A stretch of DNA of 32,000 nucleotides from an archaeon (GCA_041657425.1 JBBABY010000003.1:60001-92000), one strand, 5' to 3'; numbered from the stretch's first letter, positions 1,802 to 27,639 are shown. Notes: a model not told the origin generated them from the sequence alone. Program-made: numbers and translations.

Positions 1802-2545
1802 TTAATGCCACAATTTTTTAAATTCGTTGATTTGTGATTGATCTCTCTTGAAATAAATATGCGCACTCAAACTTGTAATTTCCATCCACCCAAATTCGAC
1901 ACCACCCAATTTATCAACTACCATTTTCTGTAAGATCATTAAAGCATATGCATTGCTCCCCCACGCGCTTAACATATCATTAGACCTAAATAACGCGTGC
2001 ATGTTGAGTTTATTATTTCTAATAAAAAACAACAAATGATTTAAACACGGGGGATCTTCTGCCATTTCGAATCCCGCCGGTTCAAACAAACTTACAACTG
2101 CGCGCCTTGTTGTAGGTGTTTCGGTGAGTTTCCTTACAACATATTCAATCTGGTCGGTTCCATCTCCTTTCCCGTTTCCATAAGGCCAGTCTATACGTAT
2201 CAATTTGTTATTTTTATCATATACTTTAAATGGAGTCCCTTCTGGGTAATCAAAGATAAGATTTGAGTATAAATAAGAAAAATCTGGTTTTCCTTCTTTA
2301 TCCACAAATGGGCGAGGTGTCATAACTTGCCGCGCATACATCTCTAATGCTTTTGCACCAAACTTAAATGCGGGAGAAGAAAAAGGAGGAATATTGGGTT
2401 TGTTTATGTGGATATTTACAGGCTCGGGGTATTCAAATATAGATTCTCCATCTTCCGTAACAATATCGTTATAATCGCCGGTCATAATTAACTTAACAAC
2501 TGCTTCGTGCGCGTCAGCAATATTATCAGTAATTATCGTGTGCAT
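1802..2545 (-). CDS. thyA: thymidylate synthase ThyA-family enzyme (archaeal-type; dUMP methylase or dUMP hydroxymethylase)
   Basis: TTRRAVVSLFEP (Arg-Arg phosphate clamp), PPCLNHLLFF (catalytic Cys), and RSNDMLSAWGSNAYAL with Asn 11 residues after the Arg, as in E. coli R166/N177. Confidence 0.85.
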   Translation of the reverse strand: MHTIITDNIADAHEAVVKLIMTGDYNDIVTEDGESIFEYPEPVNIHINKPNIPPFSSPAFKFGAKALEMYARQVMTPRPFVDKEGKPDFSYLYSNLIFDYPEGTPFKVYDKNNKLIRIDWPYGNGKGDGTDQIEYVVRKLTETPTTRRAVVSLFEPAGFEMAEDPPCLNHLLFFIRNNKLNMHALFRSNDMLSAWGSNAYALMILQKMVVDKLGGVEFGWMEITSLSAHIYFKRDQSQINEFKKLWH

Positions 2546-7541: not shown

Positions 7542-7544
7542 GTG

Positions 7545-7805
7545 ATGATAATGACCCAAAAATACGAAATCATAATCAAAAAACACGACAAAGAATACCA
7601 TTGCTACATCAAAGGATACTCAGAACTTTCCGCAGATGGCAATACGCGCGCGAGTGCGCTGGGGAATCTTTTACTTTTAAATCAAGACAAATTTAACATT
7701 GAAAGGATCACTACTATAGAAGAGAATAAACCAGAACCGAAGAAAAAGTCTGTTGGAAAGTTACCGAATACTGGTTTGGGGTCTTCGCTACCGGGAAGGT
7801 GGTAA
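7545..7805 (+). CDS. hypothetical protein
   Basis: First ATG is at 7545; the track begins at a GTG at 7542, immediately after the upstream stop. Confidence 0.55.
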   Translation: MIMTQKYEIIIKKHDKEYHCYIKGYSELSADGNTRASALGNLLLLNQDKFNIERITTIEENKPEPKKKSVGKLPNTGLGSSLPGRW

Positions 7806-8079: not shown

Positions 8080-8316
8080 ATGGACACCATAACAGAATTC
8101 CCACAACGATGCGACCACCCACTTGAATTCGTAGAATTGCTATATGCAACACAAACACAATCTTCTGGTGGTGCATGGAGCGCGCAGGCTATTGTAAAAT
8201 GTCACAAATGCGGAGCACAATTTCATATGGGTTCTGATTATAATGGTGGATATTTCAGACATAATAATGAAATTGTTGCGTTCCCGCAAATAACAAGATT
8301 GCCAAGACCTATTTAA
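8080..8316 (+). CDS. hypothetical protein, possible zinc-binding
   Basis: 78 aa with a GAGGAA SD. Contains CDH ... CHKCG. Confidence 0.5.
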   Translation: MDTITEFPQRCDHPLEFVELLYATQTQSSGGAWSAQAIVKCHKCGAQFHMGSDYNGGYFRHNNEIVAFPQITRLPRPI

Positions 8317-8577: not shown

Positions 8578-9284
8578 CTCAATTTTGCATCGCTGATATC
8601 CACGGCCGCGCACCTGCTCTCATCGACGTATTAGACAAATCCAACTTCGATTTCAATAATGACCAACTTATTGTTCTCGGAGACATTGTTGACGGATACC
8701 CGTGGACGCGCGAGTGTTTTGATATTTTAAATAGTATAAAAAACAAAATAGTCTGCGCCGCGAATCACGATGCGTGGGCACTTAATTGGTTCCAAACCGG
8801 CCAAGAACTTCCCATTTGGGTTCACCAAGGGGGGTATGCAACCATGCGGTCGTATGATTTCGATCACCGCAATGTTCCACAAGAGCATATTGACCTTATC
8901 AAGAACGCGCATACTTACTATATTGATCCACGAAATAACATCTACTGCCACGGAGGTTTTAACCCGAAAGTAGATATTTCTAATCAAACCCAAGAATTTA
9001 TTACATGGGATCGCACCCTGTGTAAATACGCGCATGACAGGTGGATTCAAAAGAATCCCGCTACTATCAAACCTTATAATCACATATTTCTAGGGCATAC
9101 AAGCACAATGATGTTTCATTCCACGCGCCCATTAATTATGGGCAATGTGATTATGATGGATACTGGAGGAGGAGATATTGGAAAATTGAGTATAATGAAC
9201 ACGGAGACGTTAGAATGGTGGCAAAGTGATAAAAAATCCTCTGTGAAAAGTGACTATCTTGCGTGGGAAAAAGGAAAGTATTAA
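8574..9284 (+). CDS. PPP-family metallophosphoesterase (lambda-PP / ApaH-like Ser/Thr phosphatase)
   Basis: Ordered motifs IADIHGR, VLGDIVDGY, AANHDAW and FLGHTS match DxHG / GDxxDRG / GNHE / GH. Confidence 0.8.
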   Translation: MTQFCIADIHGRAPALIDVLDKSNFDFNNDQLIVLGDIVDGYPWTRECFDILNSIKNKIVCAANHDAWALNWFQTGQELPIWVHQGGYATMRSYDFDHRNVPQEHIDLIKNAHTYYIDPRNNIYCHGGFNPKVDISNQTQEFITWDRTLCKYAHDRWIQKNPATIKPYNHIFLGHTSTMMFHSTRPLIMGNVIMMDTGGGDIGKLSIMNTETLEWWQSDKKSSVKSDYLAWEKGKY

Positions 9285-9309: not shown

Positions 9310-9612
9310 ATGAAAGTTTTTGGAGAAATTGATTTATCCGGTATCAAGAAAATCGTGATCAACCGGACTGTTGTTTGGGAACGTAAAGAAGAAAATGGGG
9401 TTCTTGTTTGGGTTAAAACTGCTGGTGGTAAAGGTTACGATGCCACGTGCCCGCTTATCTATCATCCACATGAAATGATGATGGTTGTAAACGAACTTCT
9501 CGCGCGCCCGAAGAAGAAAATGCTTCCGTGTGGTGATGTAATTGTTGTTGGCACAGCATATCACGCGTGGCCTGCGGGCGAGGCGTTGAATGTGTGTAGG
9601 AAGGAGGATTGA
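9310..9612 (+). CDS. hypothetical protein
   Basis: 100 aa with an AAGGAG SD 6 nt upstream. Confidence 0.55.
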   Translation: MKVFGEIDLSGIKKIVINRTVVWERKEENGVLVWVKTAGGKGYDATCPLIYHPHEMMMVVNELLARPKKKMLPCGDVIVVGTAYHAWPAGEALNVCRKED

Positions 9613-9958: not shown

Positions 9959-10056
9959 CCTACGCGCATATTGTGGGTTTTAGAACGGGTGATAAAAACT
10001 AATTTTGAATGTTTAATTCTACCTACGCGCGTATTAGGATTTCATTCTACGCGTAT
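9959..10056 (+). repeat. three direct copies of a CTACGCG(CG)(A/G)TAT motif with palindromic cores
   Basis: CCTACGCGCATATT (9959-9972); CCTACGCGCGTATT (10022-10035, core TACGCGCGTA palindromic); CTACGCGTAT (10047-10056, core TACGCGTA palindromic). All lie in the intergenic region upstream of the recombinase. Confidence 0.6.
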
Positions 10057-13945: not shown

Positions 13946-14512
13946 TTATTGATAGTTGAAAACTTCCATCCACACAATCCTGCTACGATCAGTGTCAATT
14001 TCGACATCAACAAGACCATTTGCATGAGCTGGAGCTATAACAGTCAGTTCCGTGGGACTAACGATGGTAAATATTGTTGGAACGCCACCAAATGATGCAT
14101 TTGTAATGGCGTCAAGATCTGTGCCCGTAATACTTACTGATGAACCAGCATTACCATATTTCGGTGTAATATTGGTAACGCGCGGAATAATCATCTTGTA
14201 GTAAGTGAATGAATTGTCCAATTTGACAATATTGTTATCGTTATTAATAGTAACATTAATAACACCATCTGATTGTGGGGGTGGAATCGGTGCAGTCATA
14301 TAAGTGGAATTCACAAATGTTGCAACGACTTCGGTGTTGTTAAACGTTACATTATTCACGCTGGAATTTACAAATCCATCGCCGTTGATTTTCATAAGAC
14401 CTCCAAAACGTGAAGGGCAACTTGACGGTACGATACTGGTAACATTCATTGCTAATGAAGCAGGAATTACCAGAAGAATAGCTAAAAGAATAAATAGGAT
14501 TTTGCTTTTCAT
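13946..14512 (-). CDS. secreted IPT/TIG-domain protein, N-glycosylation sequon-rich
   Basis: Signal peptide MKSKILFILLAILLVIPASLA. Second half PRVTNITPKYGNAGSSVSITGTDL ... FGGVPTIFTIVSPTELTVIAP fits the IPT/TIG pattern. Eight N-x-S/T sequons in 188 aa. Confidence 0.6.
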   Translation of the reverse strand: MKSKILFILLAILLVIPASLAMNVTSIVPSSCPSRFGGLMKINGDGFVNSSVNNVTFNNTEVVATFVNSTYMTAPIPPPQSDGVINVTINNDNNIVKLDNSFTYYKMIIPRVTNITPKYGNAGSSVSITGTDLDAITNASFGGVPTIFTIVSPTELTVIAPAHANGLVDVEIDTDRSRIVWMEVFNYQ

Positions 14513-16636: not shown

Positions 16637-16838
16637 TGTAACCCCTCGCGCGGATCGTTTCAATTGGCACTACATAAGATTCTTCTTTCCGTGATTCGTT
16701 CCATACAATGATCATAGCAAATTCTCCATCAATATCTTTAATTTCCCCAGCCTGTTCGAGCCGGTTTTTAGGAATCCAGCAGGGGCGGTTAGGCCCGACC
16801 CGCCACCATATTGGCTGCTTTTTGTGAAAATCAACCAT
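16629..16838 (-). CDS. hypothetical protein (first gene of the block)
   Basis: 69 aa. ATG lies 23 nt downstream of TTAAATACA. Confidence 0.5.
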   Translation of the reverse strand: MVDFHKKQPIWWRVGPNRPCWIPKNRLEQAGEIKDIDGEFAMIIVWNESRKEESYVVPIETIRARGYNG

Positions 16839-16861: not shown

Positions 16862-16974
16862 TGTATTTAATGGTTTTCCTTCGGTCTTCCTTTTCGCGCG
16901 CGGGTCAAAGATAAGTCGCATGAGTATATTAAAATTGATATATAATGTATGTGTATACACAAACTTTAAATACT
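16862..16974. promoter_or_regulatory. divergent promoter pair
   Basis: Minus-strand TTAAATACA (16862-16870) is 23 nt from the ATG at 16838. Plus-strand CTTTAAATACT (16964-16974) is exactly 20 nt from the ATG at 16995. Confidence 0.55.
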
Positions 16975-16994: not shown

Positions 16995-17342
16995 ATGTTA
17001 GTAGATAAAATTAAAACTGACTTCGAAGTGAGCAATAGTCTCAATGCCGAATCTTCTCCAAAAACCACCTATACATTTTTGTTATTTGGGTTAGAAAGAG
17101 AGTTCTTTGGTCAGATAATCAGCGGTGCATCAACAGATATACAAATATCAGATGGGTTTGCTTGTATAGTTGCCTTTTGTCCAGATAAGCCTATTAGAGA
17201 AAAGATATGGGCAGATTTTACAGGCATGAAAAAGGGGGGAACACCCACAAGGGAGGCTGCTATCCTTTCACTTGGTTCACTTACTGATTACCTAGCAGAA
17301 TGCTTAGACCTTACAGAGAGCTCTATGGGAGGGTTCTTGTGA
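16995..17342 (+). CDS. hypothetical protein (leaderless first gene of the ATPase operon)
   Basis: 115-aa ORF with promoter geometry as described for 16964-16974. Confidence 0.55.
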   Translation: MLVDKIKTDFEVSNSLNAESSPKTTYTFLLFGLEREFFGQIISGASTDIQISDGFACIVAFCPDKPIREKIWADFTGMKKGGTPTREAAILSLGSLTDYLAECLDLTESSMGGFL

Positions 17343-18358
17343 GGATAGACAAAGCTGAATATAACTTCCTTCCACTCGGGCCGGCCAATGGTAGTGCTGT
17401 AAAGCGATTTGCCATAGAAGTTCAAAACTACATTGAGAGTGAGAAACCAATACCCCCGAGCGCACTTGGTAGATATATTGCAGAAAGAATTACTGATGAG
17501 AAAGACAGGCAGGATTTTATCGGCGCGGTAGCTGGTGATAGAGGTTCGGGTAAGAGCTACACTTGCTTGTGGATACTCTGGCGCACATCAGTAGAAATAT
17601 CAAAACTCCTTGGTGGCGACCCATTAGATTACTTTGACCCACGTGAGAATGTTCTTTCATTAGATGATGCCCAATCAGTATCAGAACTACTTGCAAGGAA
17701 GTCAAAGAATAAATTCCAATGCCTGCTTATAGATGATAACACAGCACTTGGCGCACATGATTGGAATACAAAAACCAGTAAGAATGCAGTAAAGATATTT
17801 ACAACTATGAGAACAATGCGCAATTGTATTTTTCTAAACGCGCCGCAAATTAAAGGAATCGATAATTCTATTCGTGATTATGTTCAAATATCTTTTTGGG
17901 TTACAAAATCATGCCATGCAGCAGGATTTAATATCATACGTGGTAACTCCAAACAAATGAGTGCGAGCGGGAAATCTTATCTTCACAGATTAAATTTCAA
18001 CAATAATGTTCTTGACTTGTGGGCATCATTTAAACCCCCGGAACATATTCTCGAATATTATGATCAGGCTCGGGAAGAATCTGCAAAACGCCTCGCAGAG
18101 TTAATTTCTGAAACCGGAGAAAGTGTGAGAAAGAGGGATTATACAGACGGAAAATCTCTTGTAGAAAGACGCACGGAAAAACTTATAGAAGAAAAAGGAA
18201 GAGATATTCAAGAAATTATAGATAGGAATCCCAAAATATCACAACGCGAATTTGCTTCGGAACTTTGTATTCATCCGGATATTTTAGGACGGATTCTAGG
18301 AAAAATGAATATACGACGCATTGAAGGTAAATATGAGGTGGTAGAAAATGTCAGGTGA
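17339..18358 (+). CDS. P-loop NTPase with C-terminal winged-helix-like domain
   Basis: Walker A AGDRGSGKSY and Walker B CLLIDDN. C-terminus ISQREFASELCIHPDILGRILGKM is HTH-like. The GTG at 17339 has a GGGAGG SD 6 nt upstream and a GTGA overlap; the alternative ATG at 17300 has no SD. Confidence 0.6.
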   Translation: MRIDKAEYNFLPLGPANGSAVKRFAIEVQNYIESEKPIPPSALGRYIAERITDEKDRQDFIGAVAGDRGSGKSYTCLWILWRTSVEISKLLGGDPLDYFDPRENVLSLDDAQSVSELLARKSKNKFQCLLIDDNTALGAHDWNTKTSKNAVKIFTTMRTMRNCIFLNAPQIKGIDNSIRDYVQISFWVTKSCHAAGFNIIRGNSKQMSASGKSYLHRLNFNNNVLDLWASFKPPEHILEYYDQAREESAKRLAELISETGESVRKRDYTDGKSLVERRTEKLIEEKGRDIQEIIDRNPKISQREFASELCIHPDILGRILGKMNIRRIEGKYEVVENVR

Positions 18359-18842
18359 AAAAATTGATAAGGAATCAGAATTATTAAAATATAGTGAAAA
18401 ATTGGTAGAAATCCAAAAGGACGGAGAAGAACATTCATATAAAGAATTTTTTGAAATTCTGGATAAAATCAAAAAATTGATAGATCCAAATTTTACGGCA
18501 ATACCACCGGATTTGAAAAAAAGTATAGGTATGGCTACTGTTACAGCAGTTGCAGCACCGGATCCAGAGCAAAGGGTTGATATATGCCGGGCAGGATTGA
18601 CACTTTTAAGAACAGCGGTTATTTTAGCAGGGGGGCCACAAAAGAAGGAATACTTGGATAAAATATTGGATCACGAAAAAGCAATTTCTGCTGAATTAAA
18701 AAGAATTTCCCCGGATCCGGAGTCAGAGCACGTTACACTTTTTGACGTTGTGTGGCGCGCAACTTCGTTCTTGGTGTTGATGTCCTTTACTGGATATGGT
18801 GAGATAAATTCTGCTGGGTTTTCATGGGATGGGGGGAAGTGA
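18348..18842 (+). CDS. hypothetical protein
   Basis: 164 aa with a GAGGTGG SD 6 nt upstream. Confidence 0.55.
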   Translation: MSGEKIDKESELLKYSEKLVEIQKDGEEHSYKEFFEILDKIKKLIDPNFTAIPPDLKKSIGMATVTAVAAPDPEQRVDICRAGLTLLRTAVILAGGPQKKEYLDKILDHEKAISAELKRISPDPESEHVTLFDVVWRATSFLVLMSFTGYGEINSAGFSWDGGK

Positions 18843-19479: not shown

Positions 19480-20589
19480 ATGCCTAAAGTTACTCGTATT
19501 TGTTTGATTTGCGGAAAGGAATTTCAAATAACTAATAGTATCGCATCTAAAGGAGGGGGTAAATATTGTTCTCGCGAATGTAATGATAAATCAAAAATAA
19601 AAGAAAAAATTGAAAAGGTATGCCCTATATGTGGGAAAAAATTTGATGTTCGTGCAAGTGAAATATCTAGAGGTGGGGGCAAATATTGTTCTATAGACTG
19701 CTATAATAAATCACGAGCAATGAAACGAATTAAAAAAATATGCCCGATTTGTGGAAAAGAATTTGAAACGTTTCTTTCATATGTAGAAAATGATAAAGGC
19801 AAATATTGTTCATTAAAATGTAGTATCGAATCTAAAAAACAAAGAATAAAAAGAATATGCCCAACTTGTGGCAATGAATTTGAAACCACCGAATCTTCAA
19901 TCTTAAATGGGAGGGGGAAATATTGTTCTCGGAAATGTGTAAATAATATACCAACTACAAAAGTGAATAAGATTTGTATTGTTTGTGGTAATAAATTTGA
20001 AGTGTATCCTTATAGATCCGAATCGGCACTTTATTGTTCGTATGATTGTTATCACAAAGATTCATCAATACGTTTTATCGGAGAAAACAATCCAAATTGG
20101 ACGGGTGGAACCAAAGAATATTGTGAAAAATTTAACAATCCTTTTAAAAGAAGGGTCTTGGCATTCTGGTATGAAAATAATCAAAATATATGTCCCGTAT
20201 GCGAAGAACCAATAATAGAGGAAACTCCGCATTGCCATCACTCATATTATGATAAAAAATCGTGTTGTTTGACGACTTCCGATGGAAAATATTTTTGCAA
20301 TCTTGGGATAAAAAATAATGAAAAAACATTTGAAATAATTGGAGATCCAAACAAATTTGTCCCTCTTCATTGTAGTTGTCATGGTAAAACAAACAACAAA
20401 AAAGAACGTAAATATTATGCGCGCAAATTTGAAACGATTATAAATGAAAAATTTGGGGGAAAATCTTATTTTACAGAAGAAGAATATAAAGAATTTTTAA
20501 TCTATCATCCAGAATGGAAAATACCATATAAACATAATAAAAAAATTATTTCACCGGCGTGTGCGCCAGTATTTTCATCACAAACATGA
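19480..20589 (+). CDS. protein with five tandem FCS/TRASH-like zinc-ribbon modules and a C-terminal HNH-like endonuclease motif
   Basis: Five copies of [IV]CxxCG[KN]xF-x(11-14)-YCSxxC, then CPVCEEPIIEETPHCHH ... PLHCSCHGKTN (HNH-like). The last 44 nt overlap the convergent gene 20546..21499. Confidence 0.6.
   Translation: MPKVTRICLICGKEFQITNSIASKGGGKYCSRECNDKSKIKEKIEKVCPICGKKFDVRASEISRGGGKYCSIDCYNKSRAMKRIKKICPICGKEFETFLSYVENDKGKYCSLKCSIESKKQRIKRICPTCGNEFETTESSILNGRGKYCSRKCVNNIPTTKVNKICIVCGNKFEVYPYRSESALYCSYDCYHKDSSIRFIGENNPNWTGGTKEYCEKFNNPFKRRVLAFWYENNQNICPVCEEPIIEETPHCHHSYYDKKSCCLTTSDGKYFCNLGIKNNEKTFEIIGDPNKFVPLHCSCHGKTNNKKERKYYARKFETIINEKFGGKSYFTEEEYKEFLIYHPEWKIPYKHNKKIISPACAPVFSSQT
19498..20080 (+). 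repeat. intragenic tandem repeat, about 117-120 nt unit, five copies
   Basis: Units start at 19498, 19618, 19738, 19855 and 19972 (the last degenerate). DNA-level conservation is visible around ATATGCCC..TGTGG.AA.GAATTTGAAAC and GGCAAATATTGTTC. Confidence 0.7.
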
Positions 20590-21504: not shown

Positions 21505-22479
21505 TCACCTACTCGCCAAATACGATGCACCCAAAATGATCAGCCCACCCAATACCAAAATCATCGCCACACCATTTCTATCCCAGAACGACAAATCCGG
21601 TATGTTATCTGCTGCCAAATCCCGTGCCTTTTTCAAAAGCAACCCACCGAATAATGAGGGGGAACGATTTTTTGGCATAAACTTATCAGAATCATATGGA
21701 TCATAGAAACAATAACATGGTATTTTTATTCCATCTGGCCATATTCTTTCTAATATAGGACGGAGTTTAACATAATCGTCAAAATCCCGTATTGTATCTG
21801 GTATCAACCCTTCGCGCGCTGCCGTAATGAAATCACATTCGCTGCCATCGGGTCTATTAAATGTAAGCAGTTTCGTTTCCTGCGACGCGCGTTTCATATT
21901 CTGCTGATCGCCAAATCGTCCATGAATAAAGTCGTCACAGACTTTGCATAGTGCAATATCGGAAACGGGATCTACAACTTCGTCGATAGAATCTTTTGTA
22001 ATCGCTGCTGGCAAACCCCCCAATTTACCCACTGCTGAAGATGAGCCCATGTGCCACATATCGGTTCTTAACAAATCATTGAAATATAATATCCCTTCTG
22101 AATGATAAGTAAGTAAACGAATAAACCATTTCCGTGACTTGGTAAACACAATTGTCTGTTGAACATTAGACCCGGAAGCCATCAAAGCGTCTTTATATCC
22201 ATAACAAGGTGCAAGCGCACCGCATTTCCTCCACCACCCGAGATTATACCAAACCCAATATGCGCCAATAATAAACGCCAATATTGCCCACAGTGGAATG
22301 GTATTTAACCAAAATAACTGTATGCTGTGAAACGGCGCAATATCAAGCACCGGATTTAACACCGGGGCCACCGTGGGTATAGGTGTCGCTGTTGCAACAG
22401 GTGTAACAACTACAACTTGGGGTGCCTGTGTGATGTTTGTAACAATTATATTAGTAAGAGGACCAGTTGCCACGCTCAT
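21505..22479 (-). CDS. membrane protein, paralogue of 20546..21499
   Basis: 324 aa. T/P/V-rich N-terminus, TM region LFWLNTIPLWAILAFIIGAYWVWYNLGWW, and C-terminal FGGLLLKKARDLAA plus a TM anchor. Confidence 0.6.
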   Translation of the reverse strand: MSVATGPLTNIIVTNITQAPQVVVVTPVATATPIPTVAPVLNPVLDIAPFHSIQLFWLNTIPLWAILAFIIGAYWVWYNLGWWRKCGALAPCYGYKDALMASGSNVQQTIVFTKSRKWFIRLLTYHSEGILYFNDLLRTDMWHMGSSSAVGKLGGLPAAITKDSIDEVVDPVSDIALCKVCDDFIHGRFGDQQNMKRASQETKLLTFNRPDGSECDFITAAREGLIPDTIRDFDDYVKLRPILERIWPDGIKIPCYCFYDPYDSDKFMPKNRSPSLFGGLLLKKARDLAADNIPDLSFWDRNGVAMILVLGGLIILGASYLASR

Positions 22480-23183: not shown

Positions 23184-24509
23184 ATGGTAAAAGCACGTAT
23201 AAGCGCGGAAGAGTGGGATAAAATTAAGAAGGATACTGGCATCGTTGAAAGTGATGGAGAAGCACATCATGTGCATGATGAAGAACCGGAACCCGTTGCC
23301 ACTCCAACAAAACAATATTCACAAGTGGGGCAGATGCAAGCAGCAAAGGGCGGGAAACCGGCTGGTGCAGTGACAGAATGGAAGTCACACGAAGGTTATG
23401 ACGCACAAGCAGAATCTTTTGCTGGAAAACACCCAACGCTTGCAAAGGCCGTGGATATTGGGAAGAAAGTCGCCGGTAAAGTGGGTGAATTTGTTGAAGA
23501 AGAAATGATTCATCACGGTGCCGCAGAACGAAAAAAACCAACTAAAGAAGAACAGGAAGAAAAGAAAAAGAAAAAACAAAAAGAATTATCATCCATTGAA
23601 AAGAAATTACAAGAAGGATTAACGGGAGATGGTGAAGAGGATAAAGACAAGGATGAAGAATCAGATAAAAAATCAAAAAAATCTAAAGTATTAGCAGGAA
23701 GTTACAAATCTGCATATGAAAGCCAAAGTGGTATCTTTGGTTCTCGTGGTTATGAACCGGCGTTTAAATCTCAATTGAGAATGGGTTCATATCAACCCGC
23801 ATATAAAGCACAAATGCGAAAACCTTCTGAAGAAGCAGAATCGGAAATTACACAACTACCTACTACTAAAAAGCGCACAAAATCCGCTGTAGAAGAATTA
23901 ATGCCAAATGCACCCGCAGTTCCTTCACAACCTCAACGCTCGCCGGAACCAGAACCAGATCGATTTAACACACAAAACTGGCAATCTCTCGGTTTCCCCA
24001 ACACACTTCCACAAAGCGCGCGCGGTTCTTTATTCCGACCGGCACAACAGCAACCTGTAGTGCCTATGGTACGGCAACCGTATCAGCCGCACCCGACCGT
24101 TCAAACACTAATACCACAGAAACGCGCGCCAATGTCCGGCCCGATGCCAAGAATTGGTTTAAATATAAATGCCACGCCACAAATAATGAAACCAAAGACA
24201 ACGATTACACCTCCGCGCGCGCCATCGCGTGTCGTACAGAAAACAGCACCGTCACCCGCTCCAATGACATTTATGGGTGTTACATTGGGTGAGAAAAAGA
24301 AACAAGAACCCAATAAACCAATCACCAGAATGGGAGAAGGTTATAAACACGTCCCGTTGGTTGTCATGAATGGTATTTACCCGGCTGCGAGTTATAATCC
24401 CAATAAAGATTCTATAACAAAGAAATCTGTCATTCCAAAAATCCGCGCTACGGTTTCACCGAATGATTTTACGATGTTTGGAATGCGCGTTAAAAATAAG
24501 AAGAATTAA
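23184..24509 (+). CDS. low-complexity Lys/Glu-rich and Pro/Gln-rich basic protein
   Basis: 441-aa ORF. KKPTKEEQEEKKKKKQKE tract, three GxYxxA[YF][KE]xQ repeats, and a P/Q/R/K-rich C-terminal half. GGTGA SD 8 nt upstream. Confidence 0.65.
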   Translation: MVKARISAEEWDKIKKDTGIVESDGEAHHVHDEEPEPVATPTKQYSQVGQMQAAKGGKPAGAVTEWKSHEGYDAQAESFAGKHPTLAKAVDIGKKVAGKVGEFVEEEMIHHGAAERKKPTKEEQEEKKKKKQKELSSIEKKLQEGLTGDGEEDKDKDEESDKKSKKSKVLAGSYKSAYESQSGIFGSRGYEPAFKSQLRMGSYQPAYKAQMRKPSEEAESEITQLPTTKKRTKSAVEELMPNAPAVPSQPQRSPEPEPDRFNTQNWQSLGFPNTLPQSARGSLFRPAQQQPVVPMVRQPYQPHPTVQTLIPQKRAPMSGPMPRIGLNINATPQIMKPKTTITPPRAPSRVVQKTAPSPAPMTFMGVTLGEKKKQEPNKPITRMGEGYKHVPLVVMNGIYPAASYNPNKDSITKKSVIPKIRATVSPNDFTMFGMRVKNKKN

Positions 24510-24511
24510 TA

Positions 24512-24518
24512 TTTTTTT
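24512..24518 (+). terminator. oligo-T tract (T7)
   Basis: TAATATTTTTTTAA after the stop at 24509. Confidence 0.4.
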
Positions 24519-24703
24519 AAAGTTCTGGGTAAACCATCCGAACTTTGTTCATTTTATCCGTATACTCACGGAAGATGCTGGATGTCTTCTTTGCGTGGTT
24601 ATTCAGAGTTCCATACACATCATTCATTGATTCGGTTGCTTTCTTGTACATCTTTTTCACTTTCCTTGAGGCGTCTTGCCTCTACATACTACAATGCTTC
24701 GAT

Positions 24704-24747
24704 AGTATTTATAACTTTTCTATACGCGTATTATTATAGAAAGATTT
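24704..24747 (+). promoter_or_regulatory. TATA-like box plus conserved 33-nt palindromic box (copy A)
   Basis: AGTATTTATAA (24704-24714), then CTTTTCTATACGCGTATTATTATAGAAAGATTT (24715-24747). The box contains the perfect palindrome ATACGCGTAT (24722-31) and arms CTTTTCTATA / TATAGAAAG. It matches 26026-26058 at 30 of 33 positions. Confidence 0.6.
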
Positions 24748-24786
24748 GTAAGTAATAAACCAATAGTTATAAATAGGAGAATAATA

Positions 24787-25584
24787 ATGAGAATTTTGAA
24801 GACGTATACAGGAATGGTGATTCCAGATACTATAAGCAAAAAAATTGATTCTAAAAAGGCGCGCCCTTTAATACAAGACGGTGGCACTACACAAGGAACC
24901 ACAAAATCCGGGACAACCATATTCGTAGAAGGAGAAAACGAAGCAAGGAGAAGGCGCGCACTACAATACTTTTTGAAAGTTTATAATAATGATTTTTCAA
25001 CAAATGAACAGAAGAAGAATGGGAATTTGGTATATAGATTGACAAGTAAAATTGTGAAGAGAGGGTTCGCTTCTGCATCTTATGCTATTCCGAATCAAAA
25101 AGAAATAAAAAAATATCATATCGTCGGAAGAAAGATTTTTATTTTGAGTTTTACGGATCAAAGTTCTAAAATGGAATCTGTGATTACTCACGAATTAGTG
25201 CATACACGAAAATATGCAAACAACAAATTTGGTAATATTAGTCATAACGAACGAAAAATTGACTTCGAAACAGTGGGAAGAATTTCTAAAGAAGGATTAA
25301 AGCAAGATATAAATACTAAAACTCCGTGGACTGGTACATATTATAATGTAAACAATGCTACTCATAAGAAAACACATTACGGAAATCCAAGTTTGGTAAA
25401 ATTAAAATTACCATTTGAACAGAAAGTTAAAATAGCAGCCGAAGGAAAAATACGTGACCGTAAACTTCTAACGGGTTCAATCAATACAAATATTGTTGGT
25501 AAAGTAGCATCAACGCGCGCAGAGAAGTTATTTCCAAAATCATTCTTTAATATCAAATATGTGCTTGATAAAAAGAAGAAATAA
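24787..25584 (+). CDS. putative HExxH zinc metallopeptidase
   Basis: VITHELVHTRKY (HExxH) with a downstream HNE. 265 aa. AGGAGA SD upstream. Confidence 0.5.
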   Translation: MRILKTYTGMVIPDTISKKIDSKKARPLIQDGGTTQGTTKSGTTIFVEGENEARRRRALQYFLKVYNNDFSTNEQKKNGNLVYRLTSKIVKRGFASASYAIPNQKEIKKYHIVGRKIFILSFTDQSSKMESVITHELVHTRKYANNKFGNISHNERKIDFETVGRISKEGLKQDINTKTPWTGTYYNVNNATHKKTHYGNPSLVKLKLPFEQKVKIAAEGKIRDRKLLTGSINTNIVGKVASTRAEKLFPKSFFNIKYVLDKKKK

Positions 25585-25785
25585 TTATTTTTTAATCTCC
25601 TTATCAACTTCATCGTTTCCAATTATGAAATATTCGATAATTACTGAAATACAAATACAGACTCCAACAAAAAGTATTGGCACCCATGTTATGCATTCAC
25701 AGAGATAGTAAAATGAAATCACATTAGATACTAACATTCCTATAAGAACAAATATAAAATTGGTTGTTATTTTCATTGCAATCAA
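25585..25785 (-). CDS. small membrane protein
   Basis: 66 aa with two TM helices. Confidence 0.45.
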   Translation of the reverse strand: MIAMKITTNFIFVLIGMLVSNVISFYYLCECITWVPILFVGVCICISVIIEYFIIGNDEVDKEIKK

Positions 25786-25957
25786 CTCCTATAATATTTT
25801 GAATCAATTCTGTAGTCAATCTTTGTGGATCATTTTTCAATTTTTCATGATGGTTGTGTATAATAGAACATGTCAAACCAGTTTTATTATATTTCCGATT
25901 GTGTCTACTATATCTGTTTTGTGATATATAATCAGTCAAACGCATTCTTTTATTCAT
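25724..25957 (-). CDS. hypothetical basic protein
   Basis: 77-aa ORF overlapping the next gene by 62 nt. GGAGG directly abuts the ATG, so the start is uncertain. A 15-aa leaderless micro-ORF (25950-25997) precedes it. Confidence 0.35.
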   Translation of the reverse strand: MNKRMRLTDYISQNRYSRHNRKYNKTGLTCSIIHNHHEKLKNDPQRLTTELIQNIIGVDCNENNNQFYICSYRNVSI

Positions 25958-26016
25958 CCTCCATTATCAGAATCTTCATTAGATTATTGAGATCCATATA
26001 TATTATAGACTCGTAA

Positions 26017-26058
26017 CTATAAATACTTTTCTATACTCGTATTATAGTAGAAAGATTT
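26017..26058. promoter_or_regulatory. TATA-like box plus conserved 33-nt box (copy B)
   Basis: CTATAAATACT (26017-26027, identical to 6375-6385) overlapping CTTTTCTATACTCGTATTATAGTAGAAAGATTT (26026-26058). A second TTTAAATACTTT follows at about 26055-26066. Confidence 0.6.
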
Positions 26059-26106
26059 AAATACTTTCAACATTTAAGATCGTATTATATTTATTAGGTG
26101 AATAAT

Positions 26107-26355
26107 ATGTCTACAGAAAACGGCGTTTGGTTCTCAAGGGAAAAAATACTTATGATGTTTCGTACAGCTGAAAAAGAAAAAGGTCTGAATGTAAATAACA
26201 GATCTGTTGTTTTTAAGAAAATTGACGGTAAGATATTTGTATGGGTTGGAAGCCCGACAAAACAGAGCCAAGTAAAAAGTGGGATAATGTCTTTAAAAAA
26301 GATGGGATTTAAATATATTAGACTTATTAATGGAGACTTCTTTGTATCCAATTAA
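26107..26355 (+). CDS. hypothetical protein
   Basis: ATG at 26107 with an AGGTGA SD 5 nt upstream. The leader TTAGGTGAATAATATG parallels ATAGGAGAATAATAATG at 24787. Confidence 0.5.
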   Translation: MSTENGVWFSREKILMMFRTAEKEKGLNVNNRSVVFKKIDGKIFVWVGSPTKQSQVKSGIMSLKKMGFKYIRLINGDFFVSN

Positions 26356-26360
26356 CTTTT

Positions 26361-26891
26361 TTACACCCTCTCAAAACTAGGCATCTTTGGAACAACCATA
26401 GAATCAAACATTTTGTTTTTTATTAATAGTTTCAAAATATCTGAATACCATATCGTTTCTTCTTTTAAAAGTTCTTTCGCCAATAGTTGTATCTGGTCGC
26501 GGTTATTATTTACAATCTCTTTTGATGTATCTAAAACCGATATATACAATTTTCTTTTACAGGAAGTTTCTTTAAGCACATTATGAATCCAGTTTAATTC
26601 CACACACGCATTATTAAAATCTGCTCCACCACCACAATTTAAATAATAATCATCCCCACAAAACATTATATCTTGATTCAGTATCTTTGATTGTGCAAGT
26701 GGGCCAGTAAGATAAACAATAGCGCGCGCAAGTGGAGAACCATGTTTATAACCTTCCAATCTACCCCACGAATGTTTGCGCTGTTTTATAGTTACGCCAC
26801 GAAAATCCTGTTGTAATATTAATGCGGCTATAGTGTGTCCCGATTCGTGGTATGCGGCGCTTCGGGTTTCGTAGAGGGTGCGTTTGATCAT
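26361..26891 (-). CDS. stand-alone FtsH-like (M41-type) zinc metallopeptidase domain
   Basis: AAYHESGHTIAALIL matches the vAyHEaGHAl motif of the FtsH protease domain. 176 aa with no AAA+ module. Leaderless geometry, 21 nt from TTTATATGTA. Confidence 0.55.
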   Translation of the reverse strand: MIKRTLYETRSAAYHESGHTIAALILQQDFRGVTIKQRKHSWGRLEGYKHGSPLARAIVYLTGPLAQSKILNQDIMFCGDDYYLNCGGGADFNNACVELNWIHNVLKETSCKRKLYISVLDTSKEIVNNNRDQIQLLAKELLKEETIWYSDILKLLIKNKMFDSMVVPKMPSFERV

Positions 26892-26912
26892 GGGGTAATA
26901 TAGGTATTGATT

Positions 26913-26946
26913 ACATATAAATTATTAACCAAAACCTTTATATCCT
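26913..26946. promoter_or_regulatory. divergent promoter pair
   Basis: Minus-strand TTTATATGTA (26913-26922) is 21 nt from the ATG at 26891. Plus-strand TTTATATCCT (26937-26946) is exactly 20 nt from the ATG at 26967. Confidence 0.55.
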
Positions 26947-26966
26947 ACTATTCTCTATTATTAATT

Positions 26967-27371
26967 ATGGGCCTATTAGACAGAATTTCATACACAATGA
27001 GCGAAGTTAAAAAACAACGCGAAAAACAAGAACTAAAGCGCGCGCTTGAACTTAAAGCATTGCGCGACAGAGTAATCCCGATGTTCCGAAAAGTTATTGA
27101 GAAATATGATGCAGAAGTTAAATTCCTCGATACCGACGCTTATGTATCTGTAGGGGGGCGTGGTATATATATTCCTTATACCACAGATGAAATCCACTTG
27201 GATCTTAAACTTGATAATTTTGTTCACGACTACGGGTCTGCATCTAAACATAAAATGCGCGCGAAGTTAGAACAAAGTCTTGATGGATTGGATAATAAGA
27301 AGAGTGGTGGGTTTTGGAACGCAGATGTGGATATTAAAAGTTTCGATACGAGTTTGAATCGGAGGCATTGA
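26967..27371 (+). CDS. hypothetical protein
   Basis: ATG at 26967 (MGLLDRISY) is supported by promoter spacing. The track start at 26907 is a TTG inside the promoter region. Confidence 0.55.
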   Translation: MGLLDRISYTMSEVKKQREKQELKRALELKALRDRVIPMFRKVIEKYDAEVKFLDTDAYVSVGGRGIYIPYTTDEIHLDLKLDNFVHDYGSASKHKMRAKLEQSLDGLDNKKSGGFWNADVDIKSFDTSLNRRH

Positions 27372-27372
27372 A

Positions 27373-27639
27373 ATGACAGACTACGGCAAAACATCAAAAG
27401 AACTAGAAGAAGAATTTGAAAAGGAAGAAGAACCGACTGAAAAGGAATATATTAAAACATTCCCAAAGAAATTCAGCAGTTCTTTACCGCGCGCACGTCT
27501 GGGTGTGAAGATTCCCGACAGCATGAGTTATATGAATAGTATAGATTCTTTAAGTATAAAAATTCCACATTCGGATATTTATAATAAGGAATGGAGAAAC
27601 TTTGAGGCTCCGTTGTTTGGGAAGAAAAGAAAAAATTGA
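27373..27639 (+). CDS. hypothetical protein
   Basis: 88 aa with a GGAGG SD upstream. Acidic N-terminus, basic C-terminus. Confidence 0.5.
   Translation: MTDYGKTSKELEEEFEKEEEPTEKEYIKTFPKKFSSSLPRARLGVKIPDSMSYMNSIDSLSIKIPHSDIYNKEWRNFEAPLFGKKRKN

Follow-up and report, generated by a model that had tools for sequence, protein, structure and literature searches.

Alternating C/G runs are enriched throughout the genomes of a probable archaeal virus lineage

Results

A probable viral contig in a DPANN-type genome bin

The window analysed here is a stretch of 32,000 nucleotides (nt), bases 60001-92000 of contig C3 (JBBABY010000003.1), which is part of a 1.1-Mb archaeal genome bin made up of C3 and 19 other contigs. 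The feature under study is an excess of the palindrome GCGCGC and, more broadly, of uninterrupted alternating runs of C and G (hereafter, tracts), which in the window occupy, among others, the genes for a 441-amino-acid (aa) protein, a 265-aa HExxH protein, a 176-aa M41-like peptidase and a zinc-ribbon-HNH protein. C3 is 138,951 bp long, with 37.3% GC and a CpG observed/expected ratio of 1.08; the GC content of the window is about 37% overall and ranges from 0.30 to 0.45 per kb. The background of the bin is of a DPANN-type genome, with 16 of the 19 companion contigs having 25-30% GC (about 29%) and a CpG ratio of 0.44. The 3 other companions, C9, C15 and C16 (47-62% GC), likewise appear foreign to the bin.

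C3 encodes an intein-bearing family B DNA polymerase (PolB), a piece of a ribonucleotide reductase, and helicase and primase-like proteins, along with methyltransferases, glycosyltransferases and giant PKD-repeat surface proteins. The closest counterparts of its PolB among cultured viruses are those of haloarchaeal tailed viruses (32-36% identity). Outside the window, the contig carries a TnpB of the IS200/IS605 type, the relatives of which at 57-69% identity are almost confined to Methanotrichaceae, Methanoculleus, Methanococcoides and Methanoperedens, a distribution that hints at the host range of the C3 virus. Furthermore, a 112.5-kb relative of C3, G001, is an IMG/VR viral genome. Based on the viral gene set, the affinity of PolB, the relatives of TnpB and the existence of G001, C3 is probably a large archaeal virus, infecting methanogens, that was mis-binned into a DPANN-type genome. 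Searches of GTDB genomes with a 324-aa protein of the window as query revealed no proviruses, and no relatives of an AAA protein of the window were found in IMG/VR. The 324-aa protein, whose gene is the best conserved one in the region (84-94% identical in near relatives), has membrane spans at the N- and C-termini and matches no Pfam or PHROG family. Intein-like inserts (Hint/homing endonuclease) seem to interrupt both the PolB and a radical SAM enzyme of C3, each encoded outside the window. An expanded family of basic mini-domain proteins is likewise encoded on C3.

The excess of GCGCGC goes beyond codon and amino acid usage

GCGCGC occurs 22 times in the window, compared with 1.42 ± 1.23 (maximum, 4) in dinucleotide-preserving shuffles. 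An earlier note on this DNA, made from the sequence alone, had listed 22 overlapping copies, all of which are present at the positions it gave, and had expected roughly 1 to 2; it counted 17 loci, although its own positions add up to 18. The association of the loci with Arg-Ala or Ala-Arg dipeptides, also proposed there, holds, but the tally of 15 out of 17 was wrong: 17 of the 18 loci encode such a dipeptide and all 18 lie within open reading frames (ORFs). This coding outcome is nearly forced by the genetic code, because GCGCGC reads as Ala-Arg in frame 0 and as x-Arg-Ala in frame 2. The codons contained in the word are not the preferred ones, as had been remarked: AGA accounts for 31% of Arg and GCA for 44% of Ala codons, versus 16% for CGC and 23% for GCG.

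Across the whole of C3, there are 83 copies of GCGCGC and 79 of CGCGCG, and the alternating tracts of 6 nt or longer number 93. When synonymous codons were shuffled within each gene, the 79 copies of GCGCGC in C3 genes compared with 14.0 ± 3.7 expected (z = 17.7), and the 69 copies of CGCGCG with 15.1. In a stricter null, third bases were permuted only among codons sharing the first two bases and the following base, so that the protein, every dinucleotide and the choice between CGN and AGR codons were all retained; here, the same 79 copies of GCGCGC compared with 39 (z = 8.2), and the 22 copies in the window genes with 14.1 ± 2.5. Thus, codon-shuffled nulls, the check that the earlier note had called for, fail to reproduce the count, and its proposal of a signal acting on DNA rather than on amino acid composition or codon usage is supported by both; an artefact of codon or amino acid usage is rejected on the same grounds. 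The three reading frames are used about equally (23, 25 and 31 copies of GCGCGC), and (CG)3 words are realised at approximately 23% of the positions at which the protein permits them, versus 1-4% for other hexamers composed of G and C only. Whether the protein sequence itself is affected is less clear. The dipeptides Ala-Arg and Arg-Ala exceed within-protein shuffles by 1.45-fold and 1.33-fold, respectively, in C3, but since control DPANN ORFs give 1.32-fold and 1.05-fold, the evidence for such an effect is weak or inconclusive.

The enrichment coexists with extensive purging of other words. In the coding DNA of C3, 24 of the 64 six-base palindromes are below half of their expectation, and 11 (AAGCTT, AGCGCT, AGGCCT, CCATGG, CCGCGG, CGATCG, CGTACG, CTCGAG, CTGCAG, GACGTC and GTCGAC) are absent, with 5-22 copies expected of each. 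GCGCGC (5.6-fold) and CGCGCG are the only strongly enriched six-base palindromes, CCCGGG (1.85-fold) being the sole other one above 1.5-fold. GTAC, AGCT, CTNAG, CCWGG and GGWCC are strongly avoided as well, and the identical set is purged in G001; CCWGG is missing from C3, and 21 of the 22 loci of its relatives likewise lack it, the 4.9-kb locus L021 having a single copy. A role of GCGCGC as a restriction-related target (of the BssHII type), one of those raised in the earlier note, is therefore unlikely: the word is in excess in a genome that has purged nearly all other palindromes containing G or C. CCGG is a second enriched word on C3, at 1.48-fold over the synonymous null (z of about 10) but only 1.07-fold under the strict null; with non-palindromic flanks, it reaches 1.2- to 2.0-fold.

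The purging raises the question of whether alternating C/G is simply what remains, a by-product of codon context or of a heavy avoidance of restriction sites that leaves G and C few other places to go. The removal of most palindromes containing G or C, the absence of 11 of them and the clade-wide avoidance of CCWGG are all in line with such an origin. It is nonetheless extremely improbable: the strict null, in which protein, codon families and dinucleotides are kept, falls two-fold short of the observed count; compensation should be spread over many words, whereas alternating runs of 5 nt or longer alone are conspicuous; and the conservation of the tracts at silent sites, described below, would not be expected.

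The enriched unit is an alternating C/G run of at least 5 nt

The earlier note had taken the palindrome GCGCGC as the unit. However, CGCGCG is equally enriched: among the 36 strand-merged hexamers composed of G and C only, the alternating pair ranks on top (5.5-fold and 4.7-fold), followed by the hexamers that contain an alternating pentamer (2.7- to 3.2-fold), with the remainder averaging 1.3-fold. Given the last figure, general clustering of G and C was rejected as an explanation. Isolated GCGC and CGCG, in which both flanks are non-alternating, occur at 0.8- to 1.15-fold, or are purged where the resulting hexamer is a palindrome, so that these tetramers are enriched only where the alternation carries on. 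Relative to the synonymous null, maximal runs of 2 to 9 nt in C3 stand at 0.99, 0.96, 0.85, 1.84, 3.0, 4.9, 9.8 and 20.6, and those in G001 at 1.0, 0.91, 0.89, 1.65, 3.1, 4.6, 9.7 and 12. In view of this length dependence and of the isolated tetramers remaining at expectation, the enriched unit is not a hexamer; it comprises all alternating C/G runs from 5 nt upwards, and the benefit or bias attached to them rises with length. The pentamers GCGCG and CGCGC show equal enrichment on the sense strand, and so do the 7-mers; words of odd length display no orientation skew. There is about one tract of 6 nt or longer per 1.5 kb and, with 5-nt runs included, one per 0.65 kb. Slippage at dinucleotide microsatellites was considered and discarded: tracts occupy all three phases in ORFs, odd lengths occur, and the other dinucleotide repeats (AT, AC and AG) are not enriched (0.4- to 1.4-fold).

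The length dependence would also suit a structural role, in which the runs would readily undergo the B-to-Z transition or absorb torsional stress in an AT-rich genome, possibly with a Z-DNA-binding protein, and in which the benefit grows with length. The rise of enrichment is log-linear, the order of dinucleotide repeats in C3 (CG >> CA/TG > TA) matches the propensity to form Z-DNA, and one-off variants that keep the alternation (GTGCGC and CACGCG) exceed transversion variants. Nevertheless, most runs are just 5-7 bp long, and at physiological supercoiling, runs of this size are too short to flip from B to Z unless a dedicated protein binds them. A six-frame search of the bin for a Z-alpha domain (PF02295) found none at E ≤ 0.1, a search that divergent winged-helix proteins could escape. 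Moreover, alternating purine-pyrimidine hexamers are not enriched as a class (1.02-fold overall; 0.9- to 1.0-fold with up to 4 G/C), the enrichment being limited to those with 5 or 6 G/C. We therefore regard a structural role as quite unlikely.

The excess is a property of the virus lineage, absent from the hosts tested

Syntenic contigs of relatives were found through homologues of the 265-aa and 324-aa proteins in metagenomes from digesters, peat and other sources. In every relative of useful length, (CG)3 words are present at 7 to 48 times the expectation, and G001 contains 81 copies of GCGCGC and 74 of CGCGCG in 112.5 kb. By contrast, the 19 companion contigs of C3 (about 960 kb) hold 22 and 12 copies, respectively, or 12 and 7 once C9, C15 and C16 are set aside, and the 16 low-GC contigs show no (CG)3 excess. 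In 20 loci flanking TnpB relatives in the genomes of methanogens and other archaea, we counted 28 (CG)3 words versus 110 expected (0.25-fold). This deficit in candidate hosts agrees with the general suppression of alternating GC runs of 6 nt or more that a published survey describes across prokaryotic phyla (PMC4060949). Hence, the signal is carried by the virus lineage and by none of the hosts tested. Of the two options left by the earlier note, an element-specific signal is the one upheld, being enriched in neither the remainder of the bin nor the DNA of candidate methanogen hosts, whereas a host signature acquired by amelioration finds no counterpart in either.

Tract cores are conserved at silent sites

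To compare C3 with G001, 85 pairs of orthologous genes (median protein identity, 69%) were aligned. The aligned regions contain 34 C3 tracts, and 21 of these overlap with a G001 tract. Hexamers within tracts are fully identical between the two genomes in 48% of cases, a share that falls to 19% for hexamers elsewhere and to 12% for those elsewhere that contain 5 or more G/C; where the encoded amino acids are conserved, the corresponding values are 64%, 37% and 23%. Four-fold sites are identical at 72% in tracts and at 47% outside (p = 2e-4). This difference resides in the interior of the tracts, where 24 of 27 four-fold sites are identical (89%; p = 8.6e-6), while sites at or beside a tract end (17 of 30) do not differ from the background. 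The loci of 19 relatives, which are mutually non-independent, give the same picture, and several tracts are retained one base out of phase (GCGCGC versus CGCGCG) or with diverged flanks. Other G/C-rich words in these AT-rich genomes decay faster than the average; therefore, the tracts persist against the prevailing mutational drift. Since a change in the interior breaks a run and a change at its end merely shortens it, selection for run integrity fits these observations best, and a bias that merely extends the ends of runs would predict the opposite pattern of conservation.

A different kind of bias deserves closer consideration, namely biased repair akin to that invoked for highly iterated palindromes or to very-short-patch repair, whereby a methyltransferase marks the runs and mismatch correction restores them, with no function being served. 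One-base deviations from the alternating hexamers gather at the first and last positions (1.7- to 3.2-fold, compared with 1.1- to 1.9-fold at the second position and 0.7- to 1.4-fold at the central ones), as they do for HIP1, and the density of nearly one tract per kb also fits the argument made for highly iterated palindromes (PMC4390886). The slight depletion of runs of 3-4 nt (0.85-0.96) would fit their conversion into longer ones, and an N4/N6-type methyltransferase (C3:19593-21149), the only remaining candidate writer, is conserved in C3 and G001 (69% identity). By contrast, neither a C5-cytosine methyltransferase (PF00145) nor Vsr (PF03852) was found in C3 or G001, which counts against such repair. 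Transition neighbours of the tracts are not depleted relative to transversion neighbours, several even being enriched (CACGCG, 1.9-fold; GTGCGC, 1.85-fold), and an enrichment that climbs from 5 to 9 nt is not what a fixed-length methylase site would give. Overall, biased repair is possible but, in our assessment, unlikely.

Tracts are scattered along the genome with a conserved local peak

The spacing of tracts in C3 is near Poisson (coefficient of variation, 1.08), with none of the periodicity that the earlier note had proposed to look for, and their position inside genes is uniform. A link to a replication origin was rejected, the cumulative GC skew tracking gene strand and revealing no clear origin. 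One stretch of 11.4 kb without a tract of at least 6 nt lies outside the window and spans the genes for a 1900-aa PKD-repeat protein and a 539-aa surface protein. Genes differ in how far they use the available positions: the PolB gene uses 12 of its 20 opportunities for a (CG)3 word (60%), the 441-aa gene 10 of 15 and the 154-aa gene 5 of 5, the per-gene significance values being inflated by overlapping hits. Core and accessory genes show no clear difference (realised fractions of 0.28, 0.26 and 0.23), and genes with a G001 ortholog differ little from those without one.

The location of the tracts bears on the possibility that they act at the level of RNA, as self-complementary runs present in every transcript from either strand, the copies of which would pair and thereby shape mRNA structure or stability. 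ORFs hold 148 of the 162 hexamer hits (about 91%), the motif class is identical when read from either strand, and copies in the 441-aa gene are about 100 nt apart. However, the other 14 hits fall in the non-coding 12% of C3, so that the density outside ORFs is similar to that inside; the uniform placement within genes and the lack of any Rfam match in the window also count against it, and a helix of 6 bp that closes a long loop has no more than marginal stability. We consider this explanation very unlikely.

The cluster highlighted in the earlier note, with ten GCGCGC loci at 24.0-27.5 kb of the window (84.0-87.5 kb of C3), is real but moderate. A scan statistic over the whole of C3 gives P = 0.002 when the GCGCGC loci are counted and P = 0.03 when every tract of 6 nt or longer is included; the cluster is only a secondary peak of a signal that extends over the genome and the clade. 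In G001, the homologous region likewise contains the maximum of that genome (10 tracts in 3.5 kb), showing that the peak is conserved. The cluster is thus a conserved local peak of a genome-wide feature and not a separate element. Within it, the 26-nt block AGAACTAAAGCGCGCGCTTGAACTTA, which includes the 12-bp palindrome AAGCGCGCGCTT, is identical or nearly so (up to 4 changes, with the tract intact) in 9 of 11 relatives, although the protein is just about 70% identical; this block may be a specific cis element on top of the general tract signal. The tracts of the window, together with the other features located in this study, are listed in Table 1.

Table 1. Alternating C/G tracts of the window and other located features. 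Coordinates are those of the window unless preceded by C3.
Feature	Coordinates	Gene or context	Retention in relatives or remark
GCGCGC	2100-2105	ORF 1802-2545 (-)	
CGCGCGCG, 8 nt	7645-7652	ORF 7542-7805 (+)	
GCGCGC	8180-8185		Sole GCGCGC locus of the window not encoding Arg-Ala or Ala-Arg; frame 1, peptide WSAQA
CGCGCG	8707-8712		
CGCGCGC, 7 nt	9501-9507		
CGCGCG, palindrome TACGCGCGTA	10026-10031	Gap upstream of serine recombinase gene	
CGCGCG	14179-14184		
CGCGCG	16647-16652		
CGCGCGCG, 8 nt	16895-16902		
GCGCGC	18755-18760	164-aa gene	8 of 12 aligned relatives; the rest have GGCGTGC or GGAGAGC
GCGCGC	20419-20424	Zinc-ribbon-HNH gene	Lineage-specific, 0 of 6 relatives
Tract	21813-21819	Gene of highly conserved 324-aa two-transmembrane protein	7 of 15 relatives
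CGCGCG	21886-21891	324-aa gene	6 of 16 relatives
GCGCGCGCG, 9 nt	24016-24024	441-aa gene	9 of 10 relatives, despite 42-65% protein identity
7-nt tract	24123-24129	441-aa gene	4 of 10 relatives; position shifted, flanks diverged
9-nt tract	24214-24222	441-aa gene	6 of 10 relatives
Tract	24859-24864	265-aa HExxH gene	Retained in L001, though flanks differ
GCGCGC	24954-24959	265-aa gene	CGCGCG in L001, one base out of phase
7-nt tract	25514-25520	265-aa gene	Retained in L001 and L005 (36% protein identity)
8-nt tract	26722-26729	176-aa M41-like peptidase gene, minus strand	
26-nt block AGAACTAAAGCGCGCGCTTGAACTTA	27029-27054	154-aa gene	Surrounds 8-nt tract 27038-27045
7-nt tract	27257-27263	154-aa gene	8 of 11 relatives
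7-nt tract	27488-27494	88-aa gene	3 of 9 relatives
Local peak, 10 alternating tracts in 3.5 kb	24016-27494	441-aa, 265-aa, 176-aa, 154-aa and 88-aa genes	
AAA protein gene	17300-18358		
Zinc-ribbon-HNH gene	19480-20589		
324-aa protein gene	21505-22479 (-)		
1554-aa gene	28292	Giant surface protein	Enters the window at this position
Radical SAM enzyme gene	C3:13306-15798	Outside window	
PolB gene	C3:32759-36130	Outside window	
Tract-free stretch, 11.4 kb	C3:96245-107613	Outside window	
TnpB gene	C3:108439-109542	Outside window	

A zinc-ribbon-HNH protein considered and rejected as the reader

One gene of the window encodes an HNH nuclease (PHROG 1271, E = 6e-36) joined to a series of five tandem zinc-ribbon modules. 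Its consideration as a candidate site-specific nickase was prompted by two reports, PMC3592412 and, for the nick site R/GCGCRGG of phage T5, PMC3517423. Orthologs are present at the loci L003, L005, L012, L014, L021 and L022 and none is encoded by G001 (of which L007 is a part), a patchy distribution given which the gene behaves as mobile cargo. The protein was accordingly rejected as the reader of the tracts.

Discussion

The runs as a feature maintained on DNA

The data show a lineage-specific, length-graded feature of double-stranded DNA, the constraint on which is strongest in the tract core; it is maintained at the DNA level, most likely by selection. On this view, a whole lineage of large archaeal viruses, which probably infect methanogens, carries alternating C/G runs of 5-10 nt as a highly iterated element, with GCGCGC as no more than its most conspicuous word, written into genes in all frames and mostly by silent codon choice. 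Purifying selection would keep the runs in place, such that changes in the middle of a run are rarely fixed and the ends drift almost neutrally, and a putative factor specific to the virus-infected cell would read the runs in a length-graded manner. A plausible role would be that of a mark setting AT-rich viral DNA apart from host DNA, in which such runs are suppressed, and this mark could serve replication, repair, packaging or protection. With moderate confidence, we thus propose that the runs are a selected recognition or self-marking element with a putative reader. Among the roles suggested in the earlier note, none is confirmed.

In a more specific version, the runs would be a self-marking code of AT-rich viruses, a density of about one per kb enabling a machine that the virus encodes or controls to distinguish viral DNA from that of the host. 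The machine could be an enzyme that places replication primers, a packaging enzyme, a nickase that discriminates strands during repair, or a nuclease that spares marked DNA. In this particular form, the proposal is speculative and we judge it rather improbable.

Several points weigh against selection for a recognition element. Only about 23% of the positions permitted by the protein bear a (CG)3 word, and usage is uneven among genes, with the giant surface-protein genes using 0-8% of their opportunities (3 of 37 in the 1554-aa gene and 0 of 12 in the 1900-aa gene). The flanks of the tracts contain no extended motif and no palindromic extension. As for a reader, the bin yielded no Z-alpha candidate, and G001 keeps the signal in full although it lacks an ortholog of the zinc-ribbon-HNH protein. 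Conservation of tract interiors is likewise expected from repair that restores tracts, and may stem from such repair instead of from selection on function. The comparisons with many relatives are not phylogenetically independent, leaving G001 as the single clean contrast; the comparison with hosts is not exhaustive, covering the remainder of the bin and candidates drawn from TnpB relatives; and the gene calls are our own greedy longest-ORF calls.

With its tracts, the virus lineage does the opposite of the prokaryotic norm, under which such runs are suppressed (PMC4060949), while purging nearly all other palindromes that contain G or C. In practical terms, the combination of a length-graded excess of runs with palindrome purging provides a strong compositional flag for mis-binned viral contigs such as C3.

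Comparison with known systems

We found no description in the literature of an enrichment of GCGCGC/CGCGCG or of alternating C/G in the genomes of phages or archaeal viruses, and the known systems resemble the tracts only in part. Z-alpha domains, such as those of ADAR1, ZBP1 and poxvirus E3, read Z-forming (CG)n, with (CG)3 being the minimal Z-alpha substrate. Like these tracts, the C3 runs are alternating CG, their effect is length-graded and CG is preferred over other sequences; unlike them, they are accompanied by no detected Z-alpha domain and by no enrichment of purine-pyrimidine alternation in general. To our knowledge, no Z-DNA/Z-alpha system of such a kind has been described in archaeal viruses. 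The excess of CCWGG in Escherichia coli arises through very-short-patch repair by Dcm and Vsr, and thus exemplifies a word enriched by repair bias rather than by function. C3 differs in that the neighbours derived from T:G mismatches are not depleted and in the lack of a Dcm-type methylase or Vsr.

Chi, which is reported to be enriched in lambdoid phages (PMC12315714), and uptake sequences are short words enriched genome-wide by selection for a protein machine and can separate self from foreign DNA, as is conceivable for the C3 runs. However, Chi and uptake sequences have a fixed length and an orientation, and oriented words of the Chi and KOPS type are marked by a strand or orientation skew, whereas the C3 runs are self-complementary, variable in length and free of orientation skew. 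Phage T5 offers a word containing GCGC on viral DNA that is recognised by a nicking system, its site-specific nicks being at R/GCGCRGG (as cited in PMC3517423). The T5 nicks are few, strand-specific and within a longer asymmetric site, unlike the C3 runs, and the HNH candidate of C3 is not conserved.

The nearest comparison is with HIP1 (GCGATCGC) and the alternate highly iterated palindromes of cyanobacteria, the function of which is unresolved (Elhai 2015, PMC4390886). Like HIP1, the C3 feature is a short, G/C-rich palindromic word that occurs about once per kb, inside genes and far above the codon-aware expectation (79 versus 14), and its one-base deviations are skewed to the outer positions. 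Unlike HIP1, the runs have no fixed length, their enrichment rising from 5 to 9 nt, and GCGCGC and CGCGCG are equivalent, with copies shifted by one base being interchangeable; furthermore, they are a feature of a virus lineage rather than of a cellular phylum, and no cognate C5 methyltransferase is encoded. The runs would thus represent a cis-acting feature with an effect on fitness, the cores of which are constrained at silent sites and for which the closest parallel is the still unexplained HIP1.

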